Made by a program: the position numbers and the translations under genes. Of a stretch of DNA of 64,000 bases, positions 4,194 to 57,400 are shown piece by piece. Within the stretch, counting starts at the first letter, position 1, and each line of letters starts with the position of its first letter. Under the pieces are notes generated by a model. That model searched no databases. It was not told the origin of the DNA and worked only from the letters and a program-made list of their open reading frames with translations. This DNA is from Eledone cirrhosa (lineage: Eukaryota): NCBI GenBank assembly GCA_964016885.1, contig OZ024740.1, positions 40,796,001 through 40,860,000 on the forward strand, written 5' to 3'.

Positions 4194-7100
4194 GAACTAA
4201 GGGAGAAATTAGAAATAAGAGGGATCAGATGTTGTTTACTCGAGAGAAGACTACGTTGGTATGGTCACATGATGCGCATGAAAGACGACAACTGTATAAA
4301 AAAGTGCAGGGCAATAAAAATAGACGGTAGCCACGGAGTAGGCAGACCCAGAAAAACCTGGGACGACTTGATAAATTCCGACCTCACACACTTACACCTC
4401 TCCAAGACAATGTCACTGGACCGAGATCTTTGGCGCTACACAGTAATAGAGAAGACCCGCCTTACCTAAGTACAAAGCGAAACCTACTAGTCAGTAGGCA
4501 CCTCTAACAAAATACACCCCCGTCCCACTACCCACACCCCATCCACACCACCCCTTTCAATGTAAAGTTATGTTGGTGTCACAACATCCAGCCCGAAACA
4601 AATGAGGTCGTGTAGGTGTCACGACAAAAAACACACAGTCCACGCTGTAATGTGGCCGTGTAGGTAACACGGTAAAAACCTCCCAGTTCCACACTGTAAA
4701 TGTGGTTGGTGGTAGGAAGGGCATCCAGCCGTAGAAAACCAGCCAGACAGTCCTATGCGAGCAAGACAACCACTCTTGCCTCAAGTGGGAAAACTCCCGT
4801 CCAAACCTATGCAAGCGTGGAATATGGACGTTTAACGATGATGATGATGTTGATGATGATGATATATATATATATATATAATTGACTACTTCCACACCTT
4901 AAATTTATGGTTTTGAAATCAACCTTAATATCTAATCAATGTTAATATTTGATGAGACAGAGAAATAGCAAAGTGATTAATTGGTACTCAATAATATCAA
5001 TACAATGTAATCAATAATTTAACAAGTTCTATAACTTACTTGTACTTTCTTTAAAATCATTATGTTCTGAAATGAGAGAAAGGTTCTGTGCTACCTTCTT
5101 TCTTCTACTCTTCTTCAAAGTTGTTAAGTTAAGAAAATCATCCCCACATTGCTGCCAATCTTTTGTACTACGGCCAGCTTTCTGCAACATAGACATTGTT
5201 TTGGAGTTGGATTGACATGGAGAAGAATTGCCTTCAATATCCACATCCTCGTCTGAACTTGGCTGGAAAATAGAACAATGCAACCATCATAATCATTTCC
5301 CTGCTAACATGAAATGGGGTCAGATGGGTCTTCACAGACCAAGTCAGTACTGAAGTAGGGCTACTCACCTCCGACAGTAAGCAACCATATTAAATTTACA
5401 TATTTCACTTATTTAAATGTCAGTATTATTTTTAATATGAAAAATTTTATAGTGTCATACTGTTGTCATCACTGATTATATTTTTATTGCCAGAATCAGG
5501 GGCTGGTACAAGGGTAATCAGCACCCTCGAACAGCCCTACAATGTGTACCTCACTAGAATGTGGGATGGTACCAGAGTATTCAACACCCTATACCAGCCC
5601 TATATAACTATAAACTATAGTATACTATATATATAACTATACTGCAATACTATATTACTACTATATTATTATAACTATACTACAACTGCCAAGTTTTCCT
5701 CTCAGTTCACTTATGCTACGTCATTCATGCACACTAATATTACACATCCATCCCATCAGAGCATACTCGCTTCGTTTCTCTCTGGTCTTCTGCGTCAAGG
5801 CCCACTTTATATATATAAAGGGGGTGCTTTTCAGGATGATCTTGATAAAAAGTAAAGTAAATCTCCTGGACAACTCACACAGTAACTTATTTATAGTGGT
5901 AATGGCTTGTGTGGGACCATTCACACTTTTTGGTACTGATGATAGCAACTGTTGGTTCAAATATGCCATGTGACTGATGAACAGCAGACCTAAGGCTTTC
6001 TGTTCAGAGTTTTCCCACTCATGAGGTGAGATATTGAGTGCCAGACACCAGCCTGGTATTTTAATTCCACGCAGATACACATATTCACACTCACGCAGAT
6101 ATCCATACATTGCATGTATTTTTTCCAGTTTTAAACACACACACAATATATATATATGCATATTAAATAGAAAAAAAAAATCTTGTGAGTTCCTTTTGAC
6201 AGGGTTTGTTTTTCATCCCGCATGGTGTCCAAAAACCAGCCTCCTCACTAAGCAAGCTTGGTGGGATTGCTGGTTGCCAATGACCTGACCATGTGGCAGG
6301 TTGTACTGGTTTAAGGGTTAGTTCGCCTCGTGGTTCTAGTGGACAGTAGCTATAATGGATAGTGGACAGCTAGGAAATTAAAATGGATATTGGACAGCTA
6401 AGAAGTTATATATTTAACTAGCTGAGGTACTTGGCTTCACCTAGGAGAACAGTTAAGAGAAGACAGATAAAAGAGAAAAATGACTGTATTGGATATGTTG
6501 TCTGGTTTACAGTATGAGGTGAGACCGTAATGTATGTGTGTGAGAGAAAGAGAGAGACATAAAAAAAACAATCATAAAAGTTCCTTATTAGGCCGGGGGA
6601 GTAAACTGCCGATTAAATGGTAGCATTGGCCTTGGATTTTAAATGTGAAATAACCGTAGTCAGTCTGATCTTTTTCAGCTCCAAAGGACGTCATCTGAAA
6701 CACAGCAATATACTGCATAACATTGCTTCTGAAGTGTTTAGCTTCATTAGTATGGTCTGTAAGCAGTATATGAATAAAAGCTGGAGGGTCCTCTATCAGT
6801 GGACGTCTGACCTTTCCTCCTAAACAACACATGCCAAGTGTAATATCCATGTTACCAATCACGATTTTAGGATCATTTCTATAATTCTTCAATGGTTCAT
6901 ATGAAAACGCAGCTGTGTGTGTGTTCCTTATGTCAGTCGTCAGAAATATATGTATATTGACACACACATATACTTGTCAGAGATCACATATATATATGTA
7001 TGTGTAGATGTGTGTGTGTGTTTAATTTTCTGTGTATCTGATTTACGTGAAGATAATGTGTCTGCAACTTACTAAGGCCTAACGTATGTAACGATCGCGC

Positions 7101-30246: not shown

Positions 30247-30335
30247 GTATACAACGAAAAATAGTGTAATTATCAAAATATATTTTTGAAATGAATTTAA
30301 AATTTATTTTAATTTTTCAGGTTTAAATCTTCAGA

Positions 30336-33300
30336 ATGGTGAGTACTGTTAATTTTTCGTTTATTGACTAAATTTTATTTAAATATGTCGACTTGAATGA
30401 TATATATTGTACACATTATACACGATATAATTAGATTAACAAAATACGAATATGATCGCAGAAGAAAAACCTTTTGGAAGATTGAAAACAAAAAAGTGTT
30501 TGAGATTATTTTTAAAGTTGACAAATTAGAAACGCAATTTTGTTATATACACATTAAGTATATGACGATGGAAATGTTCACTATTAGGATATGACTATAT
30601 ACTCTCGTTTGTTCCTATCAATTTAGTATAAAGTTAGTCAAACCGTAAGAGGAAACTTTGGTAGGCCACGAACAGAATTTTCTCTTATTTTTACTTCTGT
30701 TAACGGAATATAAAACTGAGTTACAGTTAAGCCTTTATTTATAACTGATTTTGGCGATATCCAATTTTAGTGGACTAAATGCTGCTTACGTGCTGTAATT
30801 GCTGTTTACTTCAATGTATGAGGCTATTCCAACAAATTTACATTCCCCTTTTTTTAGCCGTTAAAAGAAATATAGATTTATTTATTGTTTTGTTTTTTTT
30901 TGCGATTTATTTGCCACTGGGGCATAGATTTCTTTATTTGCCACGGGGGAAGTTTTTACAAAAATCAAGTACAAACATTTAACGAGTGATTAAAAAGGAA
31001 TATAAAAAATTAAGTCCTCAATAGAGAGGCAGCCTTTACACACACCCCCGTAGAAAGTGTGCGACTTTTCTGCCAGGGAGCACAGAGAGAGGGGGGTGCT
31101 CCCTTCTCTTACCTGTACAAGCCGATATAGAGAGATGGCCCGCTTACACGGGCCATTATTGCTACTTTCACCCATCTTTCATGGAATTGGCTGGGACTGA
31201 GTGCCTTTCTCTCCACCTTGATCCTTCTTTCGAAGTGGTATCGGAAGAAGAGGACCATTTGTTGGCCGGCGACTTATCCCCACAGATCGGCAAAAAAAAA
31301 CAAAAACGTGGCAAATAAAGAAATCTATGCCCCAGTGGCAAATAAATCGCAAAAAAAACAATAAATAAATCTATATTTCTTTTAACGGCTAAAAAAAGGG
31401 GAATGTAAATTTGTTGCAATAGCCTCATACATTGAAGTAAGCAGCATTTAGTCCACTAAAATTGGATATCGCCCTAATTTTTTCTGCTGTCTTTTCATGT
31501 AATTTTTAAACGATCTGTTTCTCTAAAGCGATATAATTTGTACACGAGCTCTGAAAACGAGTAAAGCACGTGTTGTAAGGAGTATTAACATCACAAATTT
31601 CACATTAGGATAGATTATAGACAATTATTTACACAAACAATTTCTCATACACATTTAACCCGTTAAACTTTGTTTTACATGATCCGTCACGTGGAGTTTT
31701 CTTTTCCTGCTTACATTTTAACGAAAACTGAATATTTTTTTTTTACAATGGAAATTCTTTAAAAAGGGATAAAATAGCTTAAATGTGCAATTTCCGAATC
31801 TTGCTCTAGTGCTCTTTTATGAAAGAGGTTGAAGGGTATAAATACCTTATTTTCCTTGGTGATTGATCTAGTGACAACGAGCTTATTACAGTGATTAAAT
31901 GTTAGAAAGATTAAACACTCTTTCATTTACATTGTACAGATAAAGCTAAGAAGAGTTAACAGCACAAACTTTTAAAGCAGTGACTTTATTGCTAATTTAT
32001 ATTTCATTATGGCATTTGGTTTTGTTGGGACCACATCGTCTTTGTCATACTTCAATTTATCCCGTGACCAACATTTACTAATTTCTTACCTTCTTCATGT
32101 GTCTTCGTCATCCATTAACTTCGACTAGAACTGATTCATACACATTTTTCATTTATCTCGTGGATTTACTGTTTCATAATAGTAGTTTGATTTGTTATGA
32201 TTCTGGTGCTGATCAAATATTGGCCCAAATTGACTTTTTAAACAGAAAATATTACACTACACTTCGTAATGTCTTGAATTCATGTTACATCATAATCATT
32301 TAACGTCCGCTTTACCTACTGACAAGGGTTGGACGGGGCTGTATACTCAGACCAAGTCAGTACTGAAGCGTTCCAGACCGAGTGCAGATTGTCTTGACAA
32401 ACTGAAGAATCCTCCTAACCTGTTCATCGGCAAGATTTTTATGATTGTAAGGGTGTTGATGGATAGACAGTGCACTCAATATTGAGATGCAGATTGACCC
32501 ATTTGAGTAGTGGTTCATTTTGTTACATTATCTGAAATGAATTTTTGTTGACTGCGAGAAGAAAAGATATATATGTATAGTCATGTTTATTGTGATAACA
32601 TCACTGAAGTTACAATTACGTAGCCTTTAGCAGGACTTTATGAACTTGTACATGATGTTGCATGTATTACGTTAGTTTCTTTTACAGAGACTGTGATCAG
32701 AACTTACCACTGATACAAGTTCATAGCTAACTGCTAACTACAACTTTTGGGTGGATAAGACATTCTAATTAATACAAATATATGTAAATCTGAAAGCTGT
32801 TTTTGCAGTAAAATGCAAAAAGTTTGACCTTTTAAAAGCATTTTGTATATCAATTGACAAAAAAAAAATGTTTTCAGAAAACCAATTCACCAAAATGTGT
32901 TTACCAGCTTTTAGAATATACACGTCTCCCACCTCCCCATCATATGGTGTGCCTGAAAGAGTTGGGGCCAGGAAGAGCATTTTGGGCCATAAAGTATTGG
33001 AAGAGGCTATGTAGCCGGTAAGAGAGTCAGACACTTGAGTTGTGGCCAGAGTTAAGAAAATTTGAAATCTTTTCCCACCATCAATTGTTAAAAAACAAGT
33101 TAAAATCATTTCGTCGTCCATTCGTAACGTACGTTACGCATTAGTTACATATACACATCTCCACATAAATAACAGAATGGAGGGGCTGGTGAAACGCTAT
33201 AGTGATGTGTGTTGTGTCCCATTAGGGTTTTCAGTCTACATAGCTTATTCGTAAAATATTTCCTTAAAAAATCCTGCTATTGCCTAATTTACTGAAGGGA

Positions 33301-36300
33301 AAGATAGATTTGTTTCCCCAAATGGGAAATGATAAACTCTGCCTTTGTAATTTTAATCTAAAACATCTTCATTGAATTTTTTAAATAATCTCTCTATTTT
33401 TGTTACAGCCACGGCAAATATCTGAAATAAAAGAATTTTTGTTGACTGCGAGAAGAAAAGATGCCAAATGTAAGTCTTACATTCAAATATTTTCTAAATC
33501 ATTCTGTTTAGGATTTATAAATTGTATAGCTATCAAAATATGTTGAATGTGTCGGCAGGAATTAATGGGTAATGTTTACATGGTTTACAGTGCATCTTCG
33601 CTTATCTGGATATCGCTTTTCCGAAATTCGATTTACCACACGGCTATTTCTATACTACAAACTGTGTGTATTTGAAGGTTTATGTTTATCTGAGGGTTTA
33701 TGAAGTTTATAGAAAACGCGCCTAGTGCCGGTTGGCAACTTGTGCCTAGCCGTAACACGTGGCGTGTATTGATTTCTTTTATTTGATTGACTGTTTAAAA
33801 GCTAAGAAAACTAACTTGGCTCTCAGTTAAACAATGGCTGGAGAAAAACGAAAGTGAGTTGTTTTGACTATCGCGGATAAGCTCTCTATATGATGCATTG
33901 AAAAAGAAAACAACTACGCCAAATGAACTCGCGAAAAGATACAATGTCGGGACGTCTACAATATCGGATATCAAACGGTCGGAAGCCAAGCTGCGCGGAT
34001 TTGTATCTGAAAAATTCCAAATTGGTTTGAAGGGAGTGGAAAAGAAAGAGAAATGCCTGAAAACGTCAGACTACGAGCAATTAGACCAGGCATTGTACAT
34101 TGAAGATTTCATCGAATGCTTTGAGAATGACGGGTTAGGGTATTAACGTTTCGATGACGTCGGAAAAGTCGAAAGGGGGATGACGAAGAAGAGGAAGTTT
34201 TAGTCGAGAAACGCCCCGTGACGCATGCGGAAGCACATCATCATATAGACCAATTTTTAACATATTTGAGGTGTGAGGGACTGGCGGATCCGGTTAGCAC
34301 TGCGACATGTTTACGTTGGCGGGAAATGGTAGCGGAACGACGAGCTTCAGCGTGAAAACAATCTTCTATTTATAACTTTTTATGGTTTGATTCAATTCAG
34401 TTTTACCAAGTTTTTGTTTGTTTAATTCTTATGTTTGTTTAATTAATTTTCTTATAAATTCTAGCTGTTCTTTTGTTATTCTAATAAACTTTCTGTACTT
34501 AGCATTTGTCTTTTATTTTGACTAAATGAAGCCAAAACATTAGAAACCACGAGCATTATGTAACAATGGGATTTTAGAATTCACTTAACCGTGTAGGTAA
34601 CACGGTAAAAAGTTCCCAGTTCCACACTGTAAATGTGGTTGGTGTTAGGAAGGGCATCCAGCCTTAGAAAGCCTGCTAGATAGTCCTATACCAACATTGC
34701 CTCAAGTGGGACAACTCCTGTCTAACCCATGCTAGCGTAGATGAACATTAAACGATGATGATGATTATCCGGATCTTTTTCTAACTGTTTGGTTTTGACT
34801 GTGTCCGGATAAGCGAAGATTCACTGTATTGGTATTTCTTCTGGTTCTCTGCTCTGAGTTCGCCCAGTTCAACTTTGTCTTTCATCTTTTTTGGGGTAAA
34901 GAGTAATTGTTTCTACTTCTGACACAAGGCCAACAATTATCCCAGTGCATTACTGGTGCTTTATTTTACCGACCCCATAAGGATGAAAGGCAAAGTTAAC
35001 CATGGCGGGATTTAATAAATAATAGTGCTAGTTCAGGAGCAGTGGATTGGTGTTATGGTTAAAATGGCGGAAAAGGAGTTTTGTGGTGTCTGATCCAGCT
35101 ATGTGTATTCTGAGTTGAAATTCCATGTCCAGTAGATAGTATCAGCAATGGAAAGTTTGTTTTCTTCAATCTGATAAGCTTTTTTCCTTTATTTCTGGAG
35201 AAATTTTACAAAGAATGTCTATATGGTCATTCTATAGTCGATTTATTGTGATTACATTACTGAAGTTACAATTAGCCTTTCTTTAGGACTTTATGAACTT
35301 GTACATGATGTTGCATGTATTACGTTAGTTTCTTTTACAGAGACTGTGATCAGAACTTACCACTGATACAAGTTCATAAGTTAACAGCCTCTGGGGGTGA
35401 AAATTATAAGTGCTGAATTATACATTATTGATATGAATGCTTTGCATACATTTTCTGTCAGTGTTTGTTTTAATTTCTTTATAATAATGTTTAGAAATTG
35501 TAAATTAAATTTTCTCAAACGTTATCTCTTTCCAGCTGTAAAAATTAAGAAGAACCGCGATAATGTCAAATTCAAGGTTCGTTGTAGCCGTTTCTTGTAT
35601 ACACTTGTTATACATGATAGAGAAAAGGCTGACAAATTAAAGCAATCTTTACCACCAGGTTTGTAGTATTGTTTAACTGTTTTCTAATTAATGTGTTTGT
35701 TTAATGGTCATGTTATAATCAGCTGCCATGATTTATGGTGAAAATTAATCTAAAATGTTAGTGTTATATATAAACCAGTTTAAAACCTATATGATGTATT
35801 TTCCATGCTCCCCATGACTGAATTTTGATCACAATTTTTAACTGATACAGGCTTTATTAACATACTTTCATTAACATGAGTGGTTACTAACTATAACATT
35901 GGAACATGGTGATGTGATTACAGATTCCATTTACAGAGGTACATCACCAAATTTTCTCAACTATGGCAAATGTAGAGAAAGAGTGCATAGAGAATTTGTT
36001 TACAAGAAAAAATAGATTGCCTAATTTACCAAGGATTAATATTAATATATCTATATATTTCATGTAAAAAAAATAAAATATATTCTGGAAACAAGGTGTC
36101 ATATAACTATCAGATTAATTGTATTAAATTTTAAATTAAATTTAAAATATAACTACCAAATTGAGTTTACATTACCTGTGGGGAAATTTAAATAGAGAGC
36201 AACAGATGCTTTAATCTGTACAACTAGGTTTACTCTGCTGTTTACAGAAATATATAATATTTTGTATCTTTCCTTTTCTTGATATGACTAATAATTGTTT

Positions 36301-39300: not shown

Positions 39301-42047
39301 AAACCCCAAAAATGGTAACTAATACAATTGTTGATCCTTGAGTGATGATTAAGCTTTGACACCTCTTGTTTGAGTGTCTTCACTGACACAATGCACGGAA
39401 AGCTTTCACTGACTTGGATTTTATCTCTCCACTTTTTAATCTGGGAGTAAATTTTAATATATTTGATAAATTGAAACAATTCTTTTGGTACACAAATATG
39501 AACAATGGCATTTTTTCTGAGTTAGTCACTGTAAGGGATGTTCTTTATTTAGAAATAGGGTTTTTACTTCAATTTTTATTGAGTTAACATCTTATCTAAT
39601 GTTGCTTTATCCACTTAAATCAAAAGATATCTTTCTAATAAAGCTGTTGGACTCAACTTAGCCATCCTGTTGTGGGGAAGTTTATACTGTAGATATTATT
39701 GACCTTGGGGTTAAGATGTTTGATTCCGGATCATAAGATTGTGAGTCAGTTGAGACATTGTGTTCTGAGATAAGACATATTTCACATGGCTTTTTGTGAG
39801 AGGACACTATTTTATTAATATTCCTGTGAAATGCAGTGTATGCGTGTGAGCTGTAAAACTCTCAAAAAACCTCTTTACTTAATGAAACCTCAAGTGATTA
39901 GTTTCCAAGATCAACAATGAGGAGGTTGACAAACTTGGGTCGAGCCCATGTTGGCTTGGGTTAATACCACTGCCTGGCCATGACTGTTTTCTATAGAATC
40001 TATAATATTTCAAACTCTGGACAGCTCTCCTTTCTCTATATTTAAACCCTGGTAAACCCTGCATTTCCTTCTGAACTAAACCCCAAAAATGGTAACTAAT
40101 ACAATTGTTGATCCTTGAGTGATGATTAAGCTTTGACACCTCTTGTTTGAGTGTCTTCACTGACACAATGCACGGAAAGCTTTCACTGACTTGGATTTTA
40201 TCTCTCCACTTTTTAATCTGGGAGTAGATTTTAATATATTTGATAAATTGAAACAATTCTTTTGGTACACAAATATGAACAATGGCATTTTTTCTGAGTT
40301 AGTCACTGTAAGGGATGTTCTTTATTTAGAAATAGGGTTTTTACTTCAATTTTTATTGAATTAACATCTTATCTAATGCTGCTTTATCCACTTAAATCAA
40401 AAGATATCTTTCTAATAAAGCTGTTGGACTCAACTTAGCCATCCCGTTGTGGGGAAGTTTATACTGTAGATATTATTGACCTTGGGGTTAAGATGTTTGA
40501 TTCCGGATCATAAGATTGTGGGTTAGTTGAGACATTGTGTTCTGGGATAAGACATATTTCACATGGCTTTTCGTGATAGGACTAGGGCCAGTATTAAAAT
40601 TCATGTGAAACTTCCATATGAGATACAACCTGAAAGAGGCCAGTTAGACCTTTCTTTATATGTATCTGTGACCTATAAACTTCATTATGAAGTCAAGTTG
40701 ATGGTAATTTCTCTCAATATCTTATGTTTAACTCCAACTATATTTCCATCAGCCACTATTTGAACTGTTAAGGTAACGTTTTAATGGTAGACTTTCTTGG
40801 TCTCAGGTTGTTGTTTGCCTGATCAAGATCAGTACTCAGTTTCCGGGGTCGACAAACTTTGGCTGAGCCTAATGTTTAGGTTAATACCACTGCCTGGCCA
40901 TGACTGTCTTCTATAGAATCTAGTTTTAAACTCTGGACAGATCTATCTAAAATGAAACTCTGGCATTCCTCTGAACTAAACCCCCAAAATGGTAACTAAT
41001 ACAATTGTTGATCCTTGAGTGATGATTAAGCTTTGACACCTCTTGTTTGAGTGTCTTCACTGACACAATGCATGGAAAGCTTTCACTGACTTGGATTTTA
41101 TCTCTCCACTTTTTAACCTAGGAGTAAAGAGAATTTCTTGTGATTTTGCTGAAGATATTTTAGCATGTTTATTTATTATGTAAGAATGTCTGCAGCTTAT
41201 TTCCTCCACTCCATCAGTACCTACACCCGATGCAGAAGTATTTCTGGTTGCTGACCCTAATAGTGTTTCCACCCCTCCCTAGCTACTGGCCTTGTCTGGT
41301 AAAGAGGATCAGTGGAACCCCAGCAGCACAAAAAGTGAGTCGTAAAAAAGGGTGGATGAACACCTGAGTCAGTGGCCATCCACCCCGAACTATTAGTTAA
41401 ATAGCCTCACCAACCTGCAATTGGCCAAGCATGGTGAGTACAGCTATACACCTGTCATGACCAAAACTAAACAGGAAGCAGTGAAGGTCAACCAGGGAGG
41501 GATTCTTTCTTCCAACAGGATGGAGAAGGTTCTGGATTGGATACGTAGATTTAGATATTTACATAAATTATTTTGTATCCAACTTCTGCAAGCATGGAAA
41601 AAAACAGATCTAAAAATGCTGGTGTGTGTAGTAAGATACCAAAACTTATATTCAAAGCAACAACTTGGTGAAAAAGGTTACATATTTCACTAAATCCACC
41701 CCAGTTTTTATCATTACAAATAAAAAGTTTTATTTATTACATATCTGGGCCAAGTATGATATATAGTTTCATTTGTGATGTGGGTGTTAAATACAATTTC
41801 TTTTTATTTTGTTGAACTGTTGATACCTCTAAATAACATATTTCCTCAAATTTAAGGATGATTGAATTTTTTTGTATTGCATAAGCAATAGATACATAGA
41901 TTTTTCTTTAAATTGTGTATCAACTACTTTTGCGTAGCTTTTGAAATTTGTGTAAAATTTGTTTGTTTTTATATTTGCTCATTAGTTTAATTATTTAAAA
42001 AACAATTTTTTCTTTCTTTTTTAGGTCTTCAAGTCAAAGAAAAATAA
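30336..42047 (+). CDS. RPL38: 60S ribosomal protein L38 (eL38), 69 aa; exons 30336-30338, 33409-33469, 35536-35658, 42025-42047
   Basis: M|[21 protein letters not shown]|[41 protein letters not shown]|LQVKEK*. All introns GT-AG and in phase; AATAAA at 42043 and 42055. Confidence 0.97.
30753..31473. mobile_element. MITE with ~170-190-bp TIRs and 8-bp TSD (Merlin-like)
   Basis: 30753-30945 is the reverse complement of 31307-31473; termini GGCGA...TCGCC; flanks CTGATTTT / CTAATTTT (7/8 match). Confidence 0.8.
32518..32568 (+). pseudogene. Degenerate intronic duplicate of RPL38 exon 33409-33469
   Basis: TTTGTTACA..TATCTGAAAT..GAATTTTTGTTGACTGCGAGAAGAAAAGAT matches 33399-33462 with deletions; acceptor AG and donor lost. 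Confidence 0.85.
32639..32725 (+). ncRNA. Intronic box C/D snoRNA, copy 1
   Basis: Perfect 12-bp terminal stem TATGAACTTGTA/TACAAGTTCATA; C ATGATGT, D' CAGA, C' GTGATCA, D CTGA; antisense elements to conserved rRNA segments; sense to the host gene. Confidence 0.8.
33409..33469 (+). CDS. RPL38: RPL38 coding exon ([20 protein letters not shown])
   Basis: Acceptor TTTTTGTTACAG, donor GTAAGT. Confidence 0.97.
33588..34826 (+). mobile_element. Internally deleted Tigger/pogo element with a nested RTE-tail fragment (34588-34765)
   Basis: TIRs CAGTGCATCTTCGCTTATCTGGA / TCCGGATAAGCGAAGATTCACTG with TA TSD; CENP-B-type HTH fragments ([37 protein letters not shown]). Confidence 0.85.
35292..35378 (+). 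ncRNA. Intronic box C/D snoRNA, copy 2 (identical to 32639-32725)
   Basis: 87/87 nt identical by eye; lies ~160 nt upstream of the next acceptor. Confidence 0.8.
35536..35658 (+). CDS. RPL38: RPL38 coding exon (VKIKKN...QSLPP)
   Basis: Acceptor CTCTTTCCAG, donor GTTTGT; inside ORF 35397-35666. Confidence 0.97.
35786..35851 (+). ncRNA. Candidate box C/D snoRNA
   Basis: Stem CCTATA/TACAGG (1 mismatch), C ATGATGT (35791), D' CTGA (35818), C' TTGATCA (35825), D CTGA (35842). Confidence 0.55.
36719..37128. repeat. ~410-bp palindrome of a Penelope-type terminal repeat with hammerhead-like motifs
   Basis: Arms 36719-36920 and 36932-37128 are reverse complements around an 11-nt spacer. Confidence 0.8.
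37384..37469 (+). ncRNA. SNORD60-like box C/D snoRNA, copy 1 of 5
   Basis: C GTGATGA (37392), guide TTTGACACCTCTTG antisense to 28S CA(A/G)GAGGUGUCAGA, D' TTGA, D CTGA (37459), terminal ATCC/GGAT stem. Confidence 0.75.
37671..37969 (-). mobile_element. tRNA-headed CORE-type SINE with RTE-derived tail, inserted in array unit 1
   Basis: ATATC target duplication; empty site (AAAAGATATCTTTC) visible in the other units; same family as 54529-54903. Confidence 0.9.
38577..38662 (+). ncRNA. SNORD60-like box C/D snoRNA, copy 2 of 5
   Basis: Identical to copy 1. Confidence 0.75.
39334..39419 (+). ncRNA. SNORD60-like box C/D snoRNA, copy 3 of 5
   Basis: Identical to copy 1. Confidence 0.75.
40111..40196 (+). 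ncRNA. SNORD60-like box C/D snoRNA, copy 4 of 5
   Basis: Identical to copy 1. Confidence 0.75.
41011..41096 (+). ncRNA. SNORD60-like box C/D snoRNA, copy 5 of 5
   Basis: One substitution (CATGG vs CACGG) relative to the other copies. Confidence 0.75.
42025..42047 (+). CDS. RPL38: RPL38 terminal coding exon (GLQVKEK*)
   Basis: Strong polypyrimidine acceptor TTTCTTTCTTTTTTAG, stop TAA, poly(A) signals. Confidence 0.92.
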
Positions 42048-43129: not shown

Positions 43130-46100
43130 TGTAGACTTCCCATCTAACAAGACGTGTTTCAGCTCGCTCTGACCAGTAAGTAGCTGTTGGAACAGAATAC
43201 ATATGAACCCAACTTTACAATTTTCAACTGAAAACTCAACTGAAAATTCTTCCTTCTCAAAAACGACAAAGCCTTAATTCCAGTGAAAGCTACGTTTTTG
43301 TATCGTGAAAACGTATTATGAAAGATATAATACTATAATGATAATAATAATTATTCGTAAGTACACAATATTCCTATTAACAAACACACAATAGTTTACA
43401 TTATCTCAGAATTATAACATATACCAGTATTATTGTCTCCTACTGTTCAATATACACCACAGAAGTTAATATTTTGAATATTTCTATCCTTATTTGCCAT
43501 TACCTATATTTACTGTTATTATCTATATTTCTTGTTGCACAAACAACTTGGTTAAGTGATCAACAACGAATCGAAGACACTGAAAAACAATAAGTAGTTC
43601 ACAGTAACAAAAAAACACATCTTTAAATATCGCAACTGGTCATATATTGAAGTGGATACAACTACAACATTCACATCAGCAGCTAAAAGAACTAATAGAC
43701 CCACTGCCATCACCATTATCGTCATCATTGTTTCCATCTTCTACTGCTACTTCCCCTTCATCTTCTCTCCCTCCTCCTACTACTCCTAGTGGCCAAAGCC
43801 AAACATTCCATTCTACCTTGCCAGTGACCCATCCCAACCACTCTTACTTCCTCCATATCCCCACCACCATAGCTCCACTAACAACTCAAGTACCATTGCT
43901 GCTGCTACTACTACTATCTCAGCCAGTGTACAAAATCAACCACTGCTCCTTTCCCCCCTCTCCATTCAAGTCAAACAATTCTAAATCTCAAGCTATTCAT
44001 AATCCACCGCCCACATAAACGATGACGGGTAACGGAAATCCACGGACTGCCAGCTCAGAGAGCAACACTTGCCTGGCCACAGACATATTGAAAATCATCT
44101 CATCACAACAACACAAAATCAAGATATAAAAAGTGTCTTGTTGAAATATGATATCAAACAGGAAAGTGGAGCAATATACAAAAATATTTTCACAAACTAA
44201 GTTTACGATGTTAAAGAAAGCAGCAGCTTTCTTGAATGATGGTGTTCAAGTTGAGCTCACAAAATCAAACCTCACCAACTGGATTATAACAAGGATTGAA
44301 AACTTCCTCCCGGAGACTTGCAAAATGTCTGACAAACAGTACTGCATTACATTTGGCCAAAAACCAGCTTTGGCATGCTTCATCTGTAGACAAGGAATAC
44401 ACGAAGCGTGCTACTTAAAAAAGATAAATAACCACACCATTCCAGATATTCTAGGCTATGCGGTTATTGTTCACCAAGGGCCACAATAACGAATGAACCT
44501 AGGACCCTACCACAGACAGGCTGTTCTAAACAGACATTGATTGGCGAAACTGACATGGCAAATAAATCCTGCCACACAGGCAGGCCATCCAAGTGCCTCT
44601 TGTAAATGACAAGAATGAAGACAATGACATGCAAAACAAGAAACAGGAGATCCTGCAGAAAAAGACCAAACTTCCCACGAAAAGAAACAGATTCAGAGCA
44701 AACGCTCAAATGAAGAAAGGCCAGTATGTATCCATTACAGGAGCAACAAGTGCAAACATGGTCTTTCAGGTAAAGGGTGCACGTACAGTCACCTCAAACC
44801 ATGCAAACCATATATCAACTTCGGTACTGATCGAAAAAAAGGATGCCAAAATGGCTGAGAATGTGAACTCCTTCACCCAAAGATGTGCCGCAATTCGCTG
44901 AGAAAAAAAGAATGTTTTGACGAGAATTGCAAATTTATGCACCGGAAGGGTACAATTCGCATAAAAACTACTGAACCCACACCACCAGGACCAAGCTCAG
45001 CAGGGTATGAAAACCATTTCCCAAAAATGCAGAAACCAGGACATGGCTCAACAGTGAATGAAAATCATGCTACTCAATTGCACACATCAGCTGTAACAAA
45101 CCCAAACTCGCAGAAATTCGATACAGTAATGAATGAAAGCTGTTTTTTAGGCATAATCTACCAACTACAACAACAGCTGTACTCCATACAGATGACTCAG
45201 CAAAACCAGGCAACATTGATACAAAGGCTGACACCTGGACTTACAGGGCACACAACAAATACAGACAGCCCAGCAGACCGAATATCCGGTCAGCAACTAC
45301 AACAGTCTTGCCAACAATAGGGCAGATGTATCCGGTACAACAAGCATAATAACAGCAAATATCCAGGGTCTTTATCCGAAAACAAAACAGTGTAAAGTCC
45401 CTTTCTTGGAAGAATTAGCAACAGAAAACAACTCCAAAATAATTGGAATTACTGAAAGTCATCTCAACGAAAACATCCGCAACAGCGAAATCTCAATCAA
45501 TGGATTCAACATCTTCAGATGTGATAGACAAGGCAGATCCCATGGGGGCGTTATCATGTATATCCATGATACCTATGCATGCATAGAACTTGTCAATGAA
45601 TCAAATGCCTACTGCAACCTGCTGTGCATAAAAATCATCCAACTTAATACAGTTGTAACAATAATGTACAGACCGCCAAACAGCCCAACATTATCCTTCA
45701 CTGAGCCACTGACAAAGCTCCAACAAATTCTGGGAAACATGGCGAGTCCAATGCCAGACATTATCCTCCTTGGTGACTTCAACTTCCCTAACATCATCTG
45801 GCCACATGGACACATACTAAAACTGGGGGCAAAAGCTGAACAAATACAGGCAGCCAAACTGTTGGAAGTCACAGAGAAATTATACCTCAAACAAATGATG
45901 ACAGAAGCAACTAGAAATAATAATACAATCAACTCGGTTTTCACCAACAACGAGGACACGCTATTTGACCTTCACTCCACCCCAACAATCCTTTCAGACC
46001 ACAATATTATTGAAATGCATTTACACATTGGTAATGAGCCCAATGCCACAACTCTTAAACAAACGAACATGCCAAAGCTATGCAGGTATGATTATCACCA

Positions 46101-48416
46101 GGCAAATTGGGGAAACTATTAACAACCAGTTACAAATCATTGACTGGGATCTCTACCTTACTGGGCCAGATAAACAAGAAATTCTTAAACAAGATCGAAG
46201 AAATATGTGCAAAAAATATTCCTCTTAAGAAAACCAAATCCACAAAAAAACCTGTACCACGGGAGCGAAAGATCCTGATGCGCAAAAAGTCAAGACTAAG
46301 AAACAAAACATCTAAGCTGACATCAAAACATGAACTACAGAAAGTCTTTGACCAAATATACAGATTAGAAGACAATCTAAAACAACACTATGATGAAGAA
46401 CGTAACAATGCAGAAAAGAGAGCCATAGAAAACATCAAGAAAAATCCAAAATGTTTCTACAGTTTTTAAAAGAAATACTCGAATACCAAGTCAACAATAG
46501 GACCTCTCCAGAGACAAAATGGGGATGTAGTGAATAGCCCTATTGAAATGGCAGAAATGTTGGGTCAACAGTATGAAAGTGTCTTCAGTGAGCCATCTAA
46601 ATCCATGAAGATCCATGACCCAGGAGAATTCTTCAAGGATATCGACCATACTAAACCTACCCTATCCGACATTGATTTCAACCCAGAAGACGTAGAAAGA
46701 GCCATAGACAAGCTCTCCATGCACTCGGCTGCGGGGCCTGATGGTTTCAATGCCATGATACTTAAAAACTGCAAGGTACAATTGTTGAAACCCCTTTACA
46801 TGATATGGAAGGAATCTATGGAGAATGGCAAAATACCAAATACATATAAAGAAGCACACATAACTCCAATACATAAAGGGGACAGCAAATCAAAACCAAA
46901 GAACTACCGACCAATCTCACTGACATCACACATTATCAAGGTCTTCGAAAGAATAGTTCGTGGAAAACTGGTTGAGTTCCTGGAATCCAACAATCTGATG
47001 AATTGCAATCAGCATGGATTCAGGTTAGGTAGATCATGTCTTTCCCAACTACTGGCACACCATGACCAAATCCTAGAAAATGGATACAACACGGATGTTA
47101 TTTACCTCGACTTTGACAAGGTAGATCATGGCATCCTGGGACACAAACTTCGAAAGCTAGGAGTAGGAGGAAAAGTTGGTACATGGATACATGAGTTCCT
47201 TACAAATAGAACTCAAACAGTCACTGTGAATGGAACCCATTCAACACCATCACCTGTGACCAGCAGTGTTCCTCAGGGTACAGTACTCGGGCCCGATCCT
47301 GTTTCTCATCCTCATCTCTGACATAGATGAAGATACAACCAGCAACGTCTCATCCTTTGCTGATGACACCAGGGTCATGAGACAAATCAAAGACGAGGTG
47401 GATACAGAGGCCTTACAAAAGGACCTAACCACCATATACAAATGGCAGGAAACAAACAACATGTTGTTCAATGATAAGAAGTTTGAACTAATTCGCTACG
47501 GAACAGATCAAGATCTGAAAAATACAACAAACTACAGAAACCCATCAGGACAACAAATAATGGAAAAACAGTGTGTGAAAGATTTAGGCATCCACATGGG
47601 AACCAGCCTAAAATTCAGAGAACACCTTGACTCAGTCTGTCTTACTGCAAGACAGTACAGCGGGTGGATCTTGCGCACCTTCAAATCAAGAGATACCTCA
47701 ACAATGAAAACCCTCTGGAACAGTATGATACTTCCGAGGATTGACTACTGTTCTCAGTTGTGGTCACCAACAACAAAGGGCCAACTATCTAAGATGGAAT
47801 CGCTCCAAAGAAATTTTACCTCATACTTCTCAGAAACGAGGGACCTGGACTATTGGCAAAGACTCAGAACCTTGAAGATGTACTCAATAGGAAGAAGATT
47901 TGAGCGATACCGAATTATATACATTTAGAAAATGATAGAGCAAAAGGTGCCAAATTTTGGTATCAAAACCTACCACTCACTGCGCCATGGAAGACGCTGC
48001 CAGCTACCACCAATCAACAAAAACCCTGCGAGAGTCAAGTCTGTTGGTTAGAGGGGCACAACTATTCAACTCCATTCCGGTACATGTCAGAAATCTATCA
48101 GGATGCAGTGTGGAATCATTCAAATTGCAGCTGGATAGATACTTAAGCACCATTAGAGATGAACCCCATCTCCCAGGATATACACAACGAGCACAAACTG
48201 ACTCAAACTCGCTCCTACACATGTCAAAATTAAACAGAGAATCCAACCTGGCAACCACACCAGACTCTGAGGGTGGAGTCTTCGACTTGGCCTGAGCATG
48301 GACTCAAACTCAAATGAAATGAATAGTTGGTATTGGCAGAACATCGAAGATATAGTACTTGTAGAGTCTGTCAACAAAGCTCTGCCTTTCCTCCAGACAT
48401 AGCAAGTAAAAAAAAA
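43130..48416 (+). mobile_element. Near full-length CR1/L2-group LINE (ORF1 with PHD + CCCH fingers; ORF2 APE + RT), pseudogenized
   Basis: APE motifs (ANIQGL, ITESHL, YRPP, LGDFN, SDH), RT (NYRPISLTS, QHGF, PQGTVLGP, FADD) and C-terminal SLLVRGAQLFN; several frameshifts and stops; short A tail; 5' limit approximate. Confidence 0.9.
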
Positions 48417-54496: not shown

Positions 54497-57400
54497 CATA
54501 CATACATAATATATATATATGATATACAAGGCGCATGGCTTAGTGGTTAGAGCATTGGACTTGCAATCGAAAGGTTGTGAGTTCAATTCTCAGACCGGGT
54601 GATGTGTTGTTTCCTTGAGTAAGACACTTTATTTCACATTGCTCCAGTTTACTCAGCTGTAGAAATGAGATGATAGGGACTGGGGTCCATATCATTCCAC
54701 TGTAAAGTGGTCGTGGAGGTGCCACGGCAAAAAAGCACCCAGTAAATGAGGTTGGTGTTAGGAAGAGCATCCAGCTGTAGAAATCAAGCCAAAATCAGTT
54801 CCTGTATGAGCAAGACAAGGTCAGCCAACCGGACATTGCCCACAACAGGCAACCCGTCTAACCCATGCTAGCGTGGAAGAATGGACGTAAAATGGTGATG
54901 ATGAACACACACATACACATATATATCATGCTAACATGGAAAATGGATGTTAAACAATGATATATATATATATAAATTCTATGTATACATGTTATAGCTT
55001 AATTGCTATAAATTATTGTTTTGTATTGTCTCTTACACCATGGACAGCATTTTGCCTCGTGTCAGACGCTGTGACCCCAGGTGGACCAGCAGTACCATTG
55101 GTAGGGGTCGAAACTGCCTTAAGTCCATCTCAATGGCTGAAGACTCTGTTCTGAATTCTGAGTCTTTCGTTTGTATTTTTATTTAAAAAAAATAATTTTT
55201 TATATATATTCGAAGTAGAGTTTAAATATTCTTTATTATGGTTAAGCAGCCAAAATAAAGGAATATATATATCCCAAAACAGGTTTTTTTCTCAAAATAA
55301 AAAAAAAAATTTTTTTTTTTTTTTCTCACTCTCCTTTATCTTTCTATTTCTTCTTTTATTTTCACTAATGTCTGAAATGTTAAAACTATGTTCCTACTAT
55401 ATCAAGCATTAAACTAACATAAGTCTTCATTGTACTGTGTCATTGGCTGTGTTGTTTTCTGTTTACTTTTTGCTTACACACACACCCATATAGAAATATA
55501 TATATATATGTAATAGTAATTTACGTGAACGGCAAAGCATAAACGAACTAAGGAAAAAATTAGAAATAAGAGGGATCAGATGTTGTTTACTCAAGAGAAG
55601 GCTACGTTGGTATGGTCACGTGATGCGCATGAAAGACGACAGCTGTATAACAAAGTGCAGGGCAATAAAGATAGACGGTAGCCACGGAGTAGGCAGACCC
55701 AGAAAAACCTGGGATGAGCTGATAAATTCCAACCTCACACATTTACACCTCTCCAAGACAATGTCACTGGACCGAGACATTTGGCGGTACTCAGTAATAG
55801 AGAAGACCCGCCTTACCTAAATACAAAGTAAAACCTACTACAGTCAGTAGGCATCTCTAACAAAATACACCCCCGTCCCACTACCCCCACCCCATCCACA
55901 GCGCCCCTTCAATGTAAAGTTATGTTGGTGCCACAACATCCAGGCCGAAACAAATGAGATCGTGTAGGTGTCACGACAAAAAACACACAGTCCACGCTGT
56001 AATGTGGCCGTGTAGGCAACACGGTAAAAACCTCCCAGCCCCACACTGTAAATGTGGTTGGTGTTAGGAAGGGCATCCAGCTGTAGAAAACCCGCCAGAC
56101 AGTCCTATGCGAGCAATAACAACCACTCTTGCCTCAAGTGGGAAAACTCCCGTCCAAACCCATGCAAGCGTGGAACATGGACGTTAAACGATGATGATGA
56201 TGATATATGTATAATTATCATCATCATCATTTTACGTCCGCTTTTCCCTGCTTGCAAGGGTGGGACAGGAGCTGATTCTGGCTTGATTTCTAAAGCTGGA
56301 TGCCCTTCCTAACACCAACTTCATTTACAGTGAGTGCTGGGTGCTTTTTTTCTGTGGCGTCTACACGACCACTTTACAGTGTGGGCTGGATGCTTTTTTC
56401 TGTGGCACCTCCACGACCACTTTGCAGTGGAATGATAGGGACCCCAGTCCCTATCATCTCATTTCTACAGCTGAGTAAACTGGAGCAATGTGAAATAAAG
56501 TGTCTTGCTCAAGGAAACATATCATCATCATCATCATCACCGTTTTATGTCCGTTCTTCCACGCTAGCATGGGTTAGACGGGTTGTCCTGTTGTGGGCAG
56601 TGTCTGGTCGGCTGACCATGCCTTGCTCATACAGGAACTGATTTTGGTTTGATTTATACAGCTGGATGCTCTTCCTAACACCAACCTCATTTACAGTGAG
56701 TGCTGGGTGCTTTTTTCCGTGGCGCCTACACGTCAACTTTACAGTGTGGGCTGGGTGCTTTTTTGCCGTGGCACTTCCACGACCACTTTGCAGTGGGAGG
56801 GTGTGGGGGCATATTGTCTATATGCTTCAGCTTGTACCCATGGGAGGTCGGGTACTCTGTATTACTGCGTGACGCCAGAGGTCACGGTCGTGTGTAATTG
56901 GGTAAGGTCGGCTTTTATCACCTCATCCCAGGTTTTCTTGGGTCTCCCCACTCCGCGGTTTCCAATGACTTCTAGTGCTCTGCACCTTTTTATGCAGCTA
57001 TCATCCTTCATACACATCACATGTCCATACCAACGCAACCGCCTCTCCTGCACACAGCATTTGATTCTTCTTATGCTCAGTCTCTCTCTCAATTCATTTA
57101 TGCTCTGCCGTTCGCGTATATTACTATTACACATCCATTGGAGCATGTAGGCTTCGTTTCTTTCTAATCTACGTAAGTCTTCCACCTTCAGCGCCCAGGT
57201 CTCACTACCATGTAACATTGCTGTTCGTATACATGCATCATACAGTCTGCCTTTCATTTTGAGGGAAAAGCTAGCAGTGACAGTAGTTCCCTGAATTTCT
57301 TCCATCCCGTTCTTACCCTATTGCACTGGGCCCTCTGCAGTGCGGGGCCCCACCAGCGACAGCCATAGCATTTTATTTATGCCCTCAACCGGGATTTTTA

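Follow-up and report, generated by a model that had tools for sequence, protein, structure and literature searches.

Two identical copies of a short element, predicted from the sequence to be a real, duplicated gene for a small nucleolar RNA (snoRNA) of the box C/D type, lie on the sense strand in adjacent introns of the ribosomal-protein gene RPL38 of Eledone cirrhosa (GenBank assembly GCA_964016885.1, contig OZ024740.1, positions 40,796,001 to 40,860,000 of the forward strand; these 64,000 nucleotides (nt) are the window, and positions are counted from its first letter). The RNA is best explained as a U45-like (SNORD45-like) guide to a single site in 18S ribosomal RNA (rRNA), with a degenerate D' box and a decayed second guide, a reading that we would hold with a probability of about 0.7. 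It is favoured because the site is a known one addressed in the register of the family, the pairing with the rRNA of the host is perfect and the guide is accessible. An earlier note on this DNA had described a duplicated snoRNA with antisense elements to both 18S and the 5' region of 28S rRNA. The body of the element comprises the following parts.

32639 to 32725, + strand: snoRNA copy 1, including the 12-base-pair (bp) terminal stem (32639-32650 with 32714-32725), from sequence and fold
35292 to 35378, + strand: second copy of the snoRNA, without a difference from copy 1; its inner features lie at +2653
32652 to 32658, + strand: box C ATGATGT, the same letters as the box C of the Rfam SNORD45 consensus
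32710 to 32713, + strand: box D CTGA, from the sequence
32693 to 32699, + strand: proposed C' box GTGATCA, from the sequence
32675 to 32691, + strand: predicted hairpin GTTTCT / TTTAC / AGAGAC inside the element, lying between D' and C'

The box C/D character claimed for the element is borne out by its anatomy: box C (AUGAUGU at 32652, one change from RUGAUGA) and box D (CUGA at 32710) are joined by the 12-bp terminal stem, with a 3-nt bulge before the GA in the geometry of a kink-turn, and the fold has a z-score of -3.54, equally stable shuffles numbering 2/200. The two 87-nt copies (32639-32725 and 35292-35378) agree letter for letter, as had been stated, and form part of an exact repeat of 94 nt (32632-32725 = 35285-35378) that a DNA search of the whole 3.0-Gb genome placed in these two positions only. 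Their flanks do differ: the upstream ones are homologous, with 2/33 and 1/34 substitutions and several indels, and the downstream ones align poorly. In all three public DNA runs, which represent one sample, perhaps the one behind the assembly, unique contigs break off at 32661 and 35314 and begin again at 32696 and 35349, and their stopping 30 nt inside each repeat end is as expected of an exact two-copy repeat. The identity of the copies could reflect selection or gene conversion, each of which is able to produce it. About 20 nt upstream of each copy stands a further block of 33 nt (32586-32618 and 35242-35274, 31/33 identical), which holds GTGAT...CTGA inside a weak hairpin (z -0.98 and -2.10) and might be either homology left behind by the duplication or an unexplained small element.

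The 18S guide and the box that would set its register are these.

32659 to 32669, + strand: anti-18S guide TGCATGTATTA, 11/11 Watson-Crick pairs with host 18S 175-185, predicted target U178
32671 to 32674, + strand: proposed D' box GTTA, degenerate, suggested by the SNORD45 register, the kink-turn geometry and the snR48 AUGUUA precedent

Host rRNA was represented by four large-subunit (LSU) and four small-subunit (SSU) copies from the same genome. The SNORD45-type element that the earlier note had recognised pairs with it throughout: GUUGCAUGUAUUA forms 13/13 Watson-Crick pairs with host UAAUACAUGCAAC at 18S 175-187, 11 of them outside box C and two with bases belonging to that box. The register here, in which the guide is followed by one nucleotide and then a box of four bases, is shared with the Rfam SNORD45 consensus (GCAUGUAUUA g CUGA) and with 4/4 metagenome look-alikes described below. 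The fifth nucleotide counted from GUUA is host 18S U178, which stands 13 nt from A165 (the A159-equivalent), the same spacing as that of human U172 to A159; on this count and this spacing U178 is read as the equivalent of human Um172. SNORD45 is described, in passages of PMC3766210, as targeting human 18S Am159 and Um172 and as having RABGGTB for its host gene, and A159 and U172 also figure as 18S sites in Table S4 of PMC11014333.

The box itself, degenerate as it is, fits its surroundings. Directly behind GUUA come a stem of 6 bp, a bulge of 3 nt and GAUC, and against the C' box GUGAUCA the GUUA yields the pairs G.A, A.U, U.U and C-G. A kink-turn of this form after GUUA (stem of at least 6, 3-nt bulge, GA, U and a pair with the G of D') arose in 7/20000 shuffles, or 7/435 among the shuffles holding UGAUC, and the looser requirement of stem, bulge and GA only was seen in 192/20000. 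In yeast snR48, a D' region reading AUGUUA is active and only its last A is essential (PMC5389607); divergent C'/D' motifs are likewise active in vivo according to passages of PMC3116282. The 18S duplex is predicted at -13.4 with an opening cost of 2.25, for a net of about -11 kcal/mol, and its 13 pairs include the nine or more Watson-Crick pairs at positions 2-10 from D or D' that mark a guide. Across the genome, box C followed by the 18S guide and a D'-like word gave six matches (control 4), and in a look for other guides to U178 among these six pattern matches the terminal stem and box D were seen only in the two copies.

Under this explanation, the snoRNA would be released from the spliced RPL38 introns, with boxes C and D forming the terminal kink-turn; GUUA, acting as D', would pair with C' GUGAUCA over the 6-bp stem with its 3-nt bulge; and fibrillarin would modify the fifth nucleotide from D', giving 2'-O-methylated U178 in 18S. 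The features belonging to this arrangement would be the GUUA register, the hairpin and GCATGTATTA, and the word complementary to 28S would likely make up the internal stem's 5' arm together with its loop and match 28S by chance.

Relatives were sought by a metagenome scan for both U45-type guides, which gave 13 loci; nine loci without box C were dropped and four distinct sequences kept (L019, two on L027/L028, and L029), which were chosen by motifs shared with the query and are not an unbiased sample. Three of the 13 loci were compared with Rfam, which calls three of the four sequences SNORD45 (E 1.2e-5, 3.7e-5 and 0.0028), all below the cut-off of 42 bits, and does not call L029. Their four-base boxes after the guide and one base read CAGA, CAGA, CTGA and CCTA. 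The two SNORD45-like copies with D' CAGA (L028:637-728 and 1375-1470) lie in two introns of one ribosomal-protein gene, which we take from its translation to be RPL10A; L019 and L029 hold further look-alikes of SNORD45, that of L029 with D' CCTA.

As for the window itself, at Rfam gathering scores it returned one match, a tRNA-like repeat, and no snoRNA or processing-snoRNA family (U3, U8, U14, U22). The weak matches on the copy (SNORD70 at E 0.019, SNORD79, SNORD72, SNORD90 and SNORD36) were set aside as resting on boxes and stem; host 18S keeps the SNORD70 target GGUAGUGACG intact (at 660), and the guide found here does not fit it. A genome scan with the SNORD45 model RF00279, in which 69/523121 candidates were scored, showed six other sub-threshold places with no convincing C/D layout by eye, and the papers listed for snoRNAs of RPL38 introns, cephalopods and molluscs include none on this RNA; a passage of PMC8522698, and PMC6984369, likewise have no bearing on it.

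The principal competitor for the D' role is the box on which the earlier note had settled.

32671 to 32683, + strand: anti-28S element GTTAGTTTCTTTT, 9 bp, one mismatch and 3 bp with host 28S 57-69
32685 to 32688, + strand: alternative D' box CAGA, the earlier note's choice, which would point at 28S A60

Here the arrangement is GTTTCTTTT-N-CAGA, and A60 is the fourth A of GGAAAAGAAAC. What holds of the proposed 13-nt guide is its core, with nine pairs at positions 2-10 from CAGA, pairing at these positions being the minimum found for zebrafish guides (PMC7668251); what fails is the full 13 bp, broken by an A.C mismatch. The host 28S reads AAAAGAAAC-C-AAC in 4/4 full LSU copies, the word faces AAAAGAAACCAAC in all four (9 bp, A.C, 3 bp), and 13/13 pairs are reached only with the Rfam consensus; the host differs from that consensus at the mismatch position by a compensatory pair change. 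Genome-wide, the 28S motif has 20 matches in the C form and one in the U form, the latter outside the ribosomal DNA. The 28S duplex is predicted at -7.8 with an opening cost of 5.79, a net of about -2 kcal/mol, and the 9-nt core (32675-32683) is taken up by the predicted internal hairpin as its 5' arm and loop, with an unpaired probability of 0.33 in the predicted fold, which protein binding could change. Set against C', CAGA keeps the GA and places C.C in stem II, whereas GUUA gives G-C there. CAGA could serve as a D' box as far as the nine pairs go; its guide has the mismatch and lies in a predicted hairpin, and GUUA with 18S is the favoured pairing. A separate 13-bp pairing with 18S 1885-1897 (3 G-U) was rejected, the positions adjoining CAGA being unpaired.

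The match to 28S next to CAGA is nevertheless uncommon by chance, at 0.3-2.4%: a boxed 9-mer to rRNA turned up in 122/5000 shuffles and 19/1250 window tiles, and a boxed 12-of-13 match in 17/5000 and 14/1250, as against 299/5000 and 136/1250 (6-11% of controls) for the unboxed one. That no 2'-O-methyl site is known at this position, as had been remarked at the outset, agrees with Table S4 of PMC11014333 (rows 73-111), where the 28S sites of fly, human, yeast, Arabidopsis, Xenopus and Dictyostelium include nothing between Arabidopsis Um48 and Um144, and the planarian 28S sites quoted in passages of PMC11649923 begin at Um181. A literature word search found no snoRNA paper carrying the anti-28S word, and the anti-18S and anti-28S elements together had 0 metagenome matches, which carries little weight in a collection with few animals. 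The 28S idea is weakened, without being refuted.

One way of keeping it is a guide with two states, in which a single C' box serves two D' boxes 14 nt apart and the internal hairpin decides the target: closed, it would leave GUUA to direct 18S U178; opened by pairing with 28S, it would let CAGA direct 28S A60, or let the RNA chaperone the 5' end of 28S. The core filling positions 2-10 from CAGA and the rarity of boxed matches speak for this, as does the place of the sole mismatch, which coincides with the compensatory departure of the host from consensus; moreover, for the yeast snR13, snR48 and U18 it has been proposed that each forms two snoRNPs (ribonucleoprotein particles) via overlapping D' boxes (PMC5389607). 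Yet in yeast the shift is by 1-2 nt within a single target, whereas here it would be by 14 nt and onto the other subunit; the net 28S binding is slight, CAGA brings its C.C mismatch with C', the six-species table offers no site in that interval, the guide did not track the U-to-C change of the host, and unboxed 12-of-13 matches are frequent in the controls. We regard a two-state guide as unlikely.

The look-alikes suggest another course, on which a U45 was re-targeted when a 14-nt insertion separated the old guide from an ancestral D' box CAGA, only 28S A60 being methylated now and the 18S element being left over as a relic or kept as a contact for chaperoning. The order in both L028 copies is guide-T-CAGA, and removal of the 14 nt here gives guide-A-CAGA; the short spacing from CAGA to C' is also like the 6-12 nt of the look-alikes. 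Such a history would leave unexplained the in-register stem, the G-C pair of GUUA with C' (7/435 shuffles) and the perfect 18S pairing, and the hairpin would block the only guide of the RNA, so that this course appears distinctly improbable.

The second guide of the RNA stands before box D.

32699 to 32709, + strand: box D guide AGAACTTACCA, for which host 18S, 5.8S, 28S, U2 and U6 hold no target with the nine pairs

The earlier note had paired it with 18S across one bulge; the host, however, reads UGGCAAUUCU in 4/4 copies, and the form GGUAAUUCU has 0 genome matches. The complementarity to host rRNA on which that note had staked its case is accordingly missing for the box D guide and partly missing for the 28S element. 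On the host 18S site the guide reaches -4.4 kcal/mol, its best pairings are of 7 contiguous bp (18S 529-535, 28S 322-328), and among the small nuclear RNAs (snRNAs) its longest match is 7 nt to U2, with no 6-nt match to U6. A pattern search of the genome found no intact A159-type guide. The guide before box D probably represents what is left, after decay, of the A159 guide of U45, which would have been lost as the host target changed to GGCAAUUCU. Zebrafish is without Am159, and the authors of PMC7668251 credit the retention of its snoRNA to a working second antisense element, which by analogy may be a precedent for a one-armed U45. The host rRNA is strongly expanded overall, the 18S match covering 2876 nt (L008:1501-4376) and the 28S matches 5114 to 6342 nt (L003-L006), and it is changed at usually conserved motifs such as 18S GGCAAUUCU; several inherited guides may have been silenced in it.

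With one arm decayed, the whole RNA might be an orphan or fading snoRNA, whose D' is too degenerate and which either has no activity on rRNA or directs its box D guide at some other target, the identity of the copies then being due to recent gene conversion. The lack of a family call and the shortness of the box D pairings would suit this; the box D target tests covered the rRNAs, U2 and U6, and a target might lie among U1, U4, U5, the minor snRNAs, tRNAs or mRNAs. The perfect pairing with a host-specific 18S in the register of the family, and the intact kink-turn motifs and stem, argue the other way, and we consider a fading RNA quite unlikely.

Returning to the U45-like guide to U178, several observations weigh against it and should be seen together. 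The copies fail the Rfam SNORD45 model (RF00279, cut-off 42 bits) even at E 10, and a profile of the four look-alikes gives 4.2 bits (E 2.3) with only the guide word aligned; the claim, drawn from sequence comparison, is that the RNA would function like the D' arm of SNORD45, not that it belongs to that family or shares its descent with U45. GUUA is without the GA of a canonical D', which CAGA has, and CAGA is the D' box of both L028 copies. Taken by itself, the internal hairpin has no unusual stability (z -1.37). Perfect 11-mers to host rRNA turn up somewhere in 133/5000 shuffles and 72/1250 window tiles; as they are not rare, the 18S guide draws its weight from site and register, not from length. 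Um172 is in Table S4 of PMC11014333 for human (and in mouse numbering) only, absent there for fly, yeast, Arabidopsis, Xenopus and Dictyostelium, nor do the planarian sites quoted in passages of PMC11649923 include it. Finally, boxed 9-mers to rRNA arose in just 862/200000 spacers simulated under the 18S model, so the 28S match must be a coincidence of about 1 in 200 if U178 is the sole target. Whichever of the 18S and 28S guides is taken as real, a coincidence of similar size has to be granted, unless both are true; the odds given to the two-state and the re-targeted RNA are a matter of judgement.

The gene that houses the copies also records how there came to be two of them.

30321 to 30338, + strand: RPL38 exon ending in the start codon, placed by splice signals
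32535 to 32568, + strand: dead partial duplicate of the RPL38 exon part 33429-33462, 33/34 identical
33409 to 33469, + strand: RPL38 coding exon between the copies, placed by its frame
35536 to 35658, + strand: RPL38 coding exon after copy 2, Pfam Ribosomal_L38e at E 1.4e-21
42025 to 42047, + strand: last RPL38 coding exon, up to the stop codon, placed by splice signal and frame

The reading frame of the Ribosomal_L38e exon carries on through exon 33409-33469, both middle exons translating correctly, and copy 1 precedes and copy 2 follows the latter exon. Just upstream of copy 1 lies the remnant of the 3' part of that exon, its donor site gone; from this 33/34 remnant beside copy 1 we infer that an exon plus intron was likely duplicated in tandem, which gave the second copy, and that the extra exon then died. 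From the live exon to copy 2, over about 1.8 kb, contig depth is high, which would reflect repeats that filled this interval later. This setting bears on a last possibility, anticipated in part by the earlier note, that there is no snoRNA at all and that the repeat is a duplicated cassette exon with the 3' splice site TTTCTTTTACAG: the stretch resembles a pyrimidine tract plus CAG, and the region was born with an exon duplication. The copies, however, remain identical for about 55 nt upstream of the AG, and their identity stops with the two arms of the 12-bp stem around boxes C and D, and by eye neither copy has a strong donor downstream; a cassette exon is extremely improbable.

In the last RPL38 intron there is a second C/D-like RNA in five tandem copies with a unit of 750-1200 nt, the only copies of it in the genome.

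37392, 38585, 39342, 40119 and 41019: box C starts of the second C/D-like RNA

Its element TTTGACACCTCTTG, which stands ahead of a TTGA box, forms pairs with host 28S CCGAGAGGUGUCAGA around 4370-4384, a site of the snoR1/snR48 type and likely the yeast Gm2791-equivalent; against Rfam snoR1 it scores E 0.12. Overlapping with this element, immediately behind box C, 11 nt are perfectly complementary to 18S 37-47 and are not followed by any box; they may be either a chance match or a second unexplained element. Elsewhere in the window, remnants like the endonuclease and reverse transcriptase of a long interspersed nuclear element (LINE) are seen by eye at about 45300-47000, and the tRNA-like match at 54536-54593 is probably the head of a short interspersed nuclear element (SINE).

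If the U45-like explanation is true, the RNA would be an ordinary guide of modest value that predicts, for an invertebrate whose rRNA has diverged strongly, a Um172-type mark so far on record mainly from vertebrates, likely by means of a GUUA D' box with a compensating change in C'. The locus would also preserve a trace of how intronic snoRNAs are copied, through duplication of exon and intron and then death of the exon. Were the two-state guide true instead, both subunits would be served by a single snoRNA in a novel manner, with an added 28S modification at A60 that is unlisted for the mapped species compared (the six-species table and the quoted planarian sites).

Among known systems, the U14 and U8 RNAs are C/D snoRNAs that act in processing or as chaperones. 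They resemble the present RNA in having rRNA-complementary elements not used for methylation, and they differ in that no such family matches here and the layout is that of a short canonical guide; PMC6315972 places Tetrahymena TtnuCD32 in the same company. A further parallel might be drawn with yeast snR48, along with snR13 and U18, which shares an active D' region containing GUUA and the idea of two C'/D' folds (PMC5389607), whereas it targets 25S G2791/G2793, and the boxes between which it can choose overlap and address adjacent bases of a single target.

There is also a close likeness to SNORD45 itself, with its box C AUGAUGU, closely followed by GCAUGUAUUA, one spacer base and the D' box, its box D guide AGAAUUAC, which the one here resembles, its intronic position and the predicted U172-equivalent target. 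The differences are a D' reading GUUA rather than CUGA, a 17-nt hairpin rather than about 8 nt between D' and C', a box D guide with an extra C, in another register and with no host target, RPL38 as the host gene, and the failure of the covariance model. The look-alikes on L028 and L019 share the guide word and its register, and L028 has, like the present locus, two copies in two introns of a ribosomal-protein gene; they depart from it in their intact CUCUAGAAUUAC box D guide, a D' of CAGA or CUGA and no anti-28S word. Thus, to judge from these sequences, guides of the U45 type would appear to occur also outside the RABGGTB setting.

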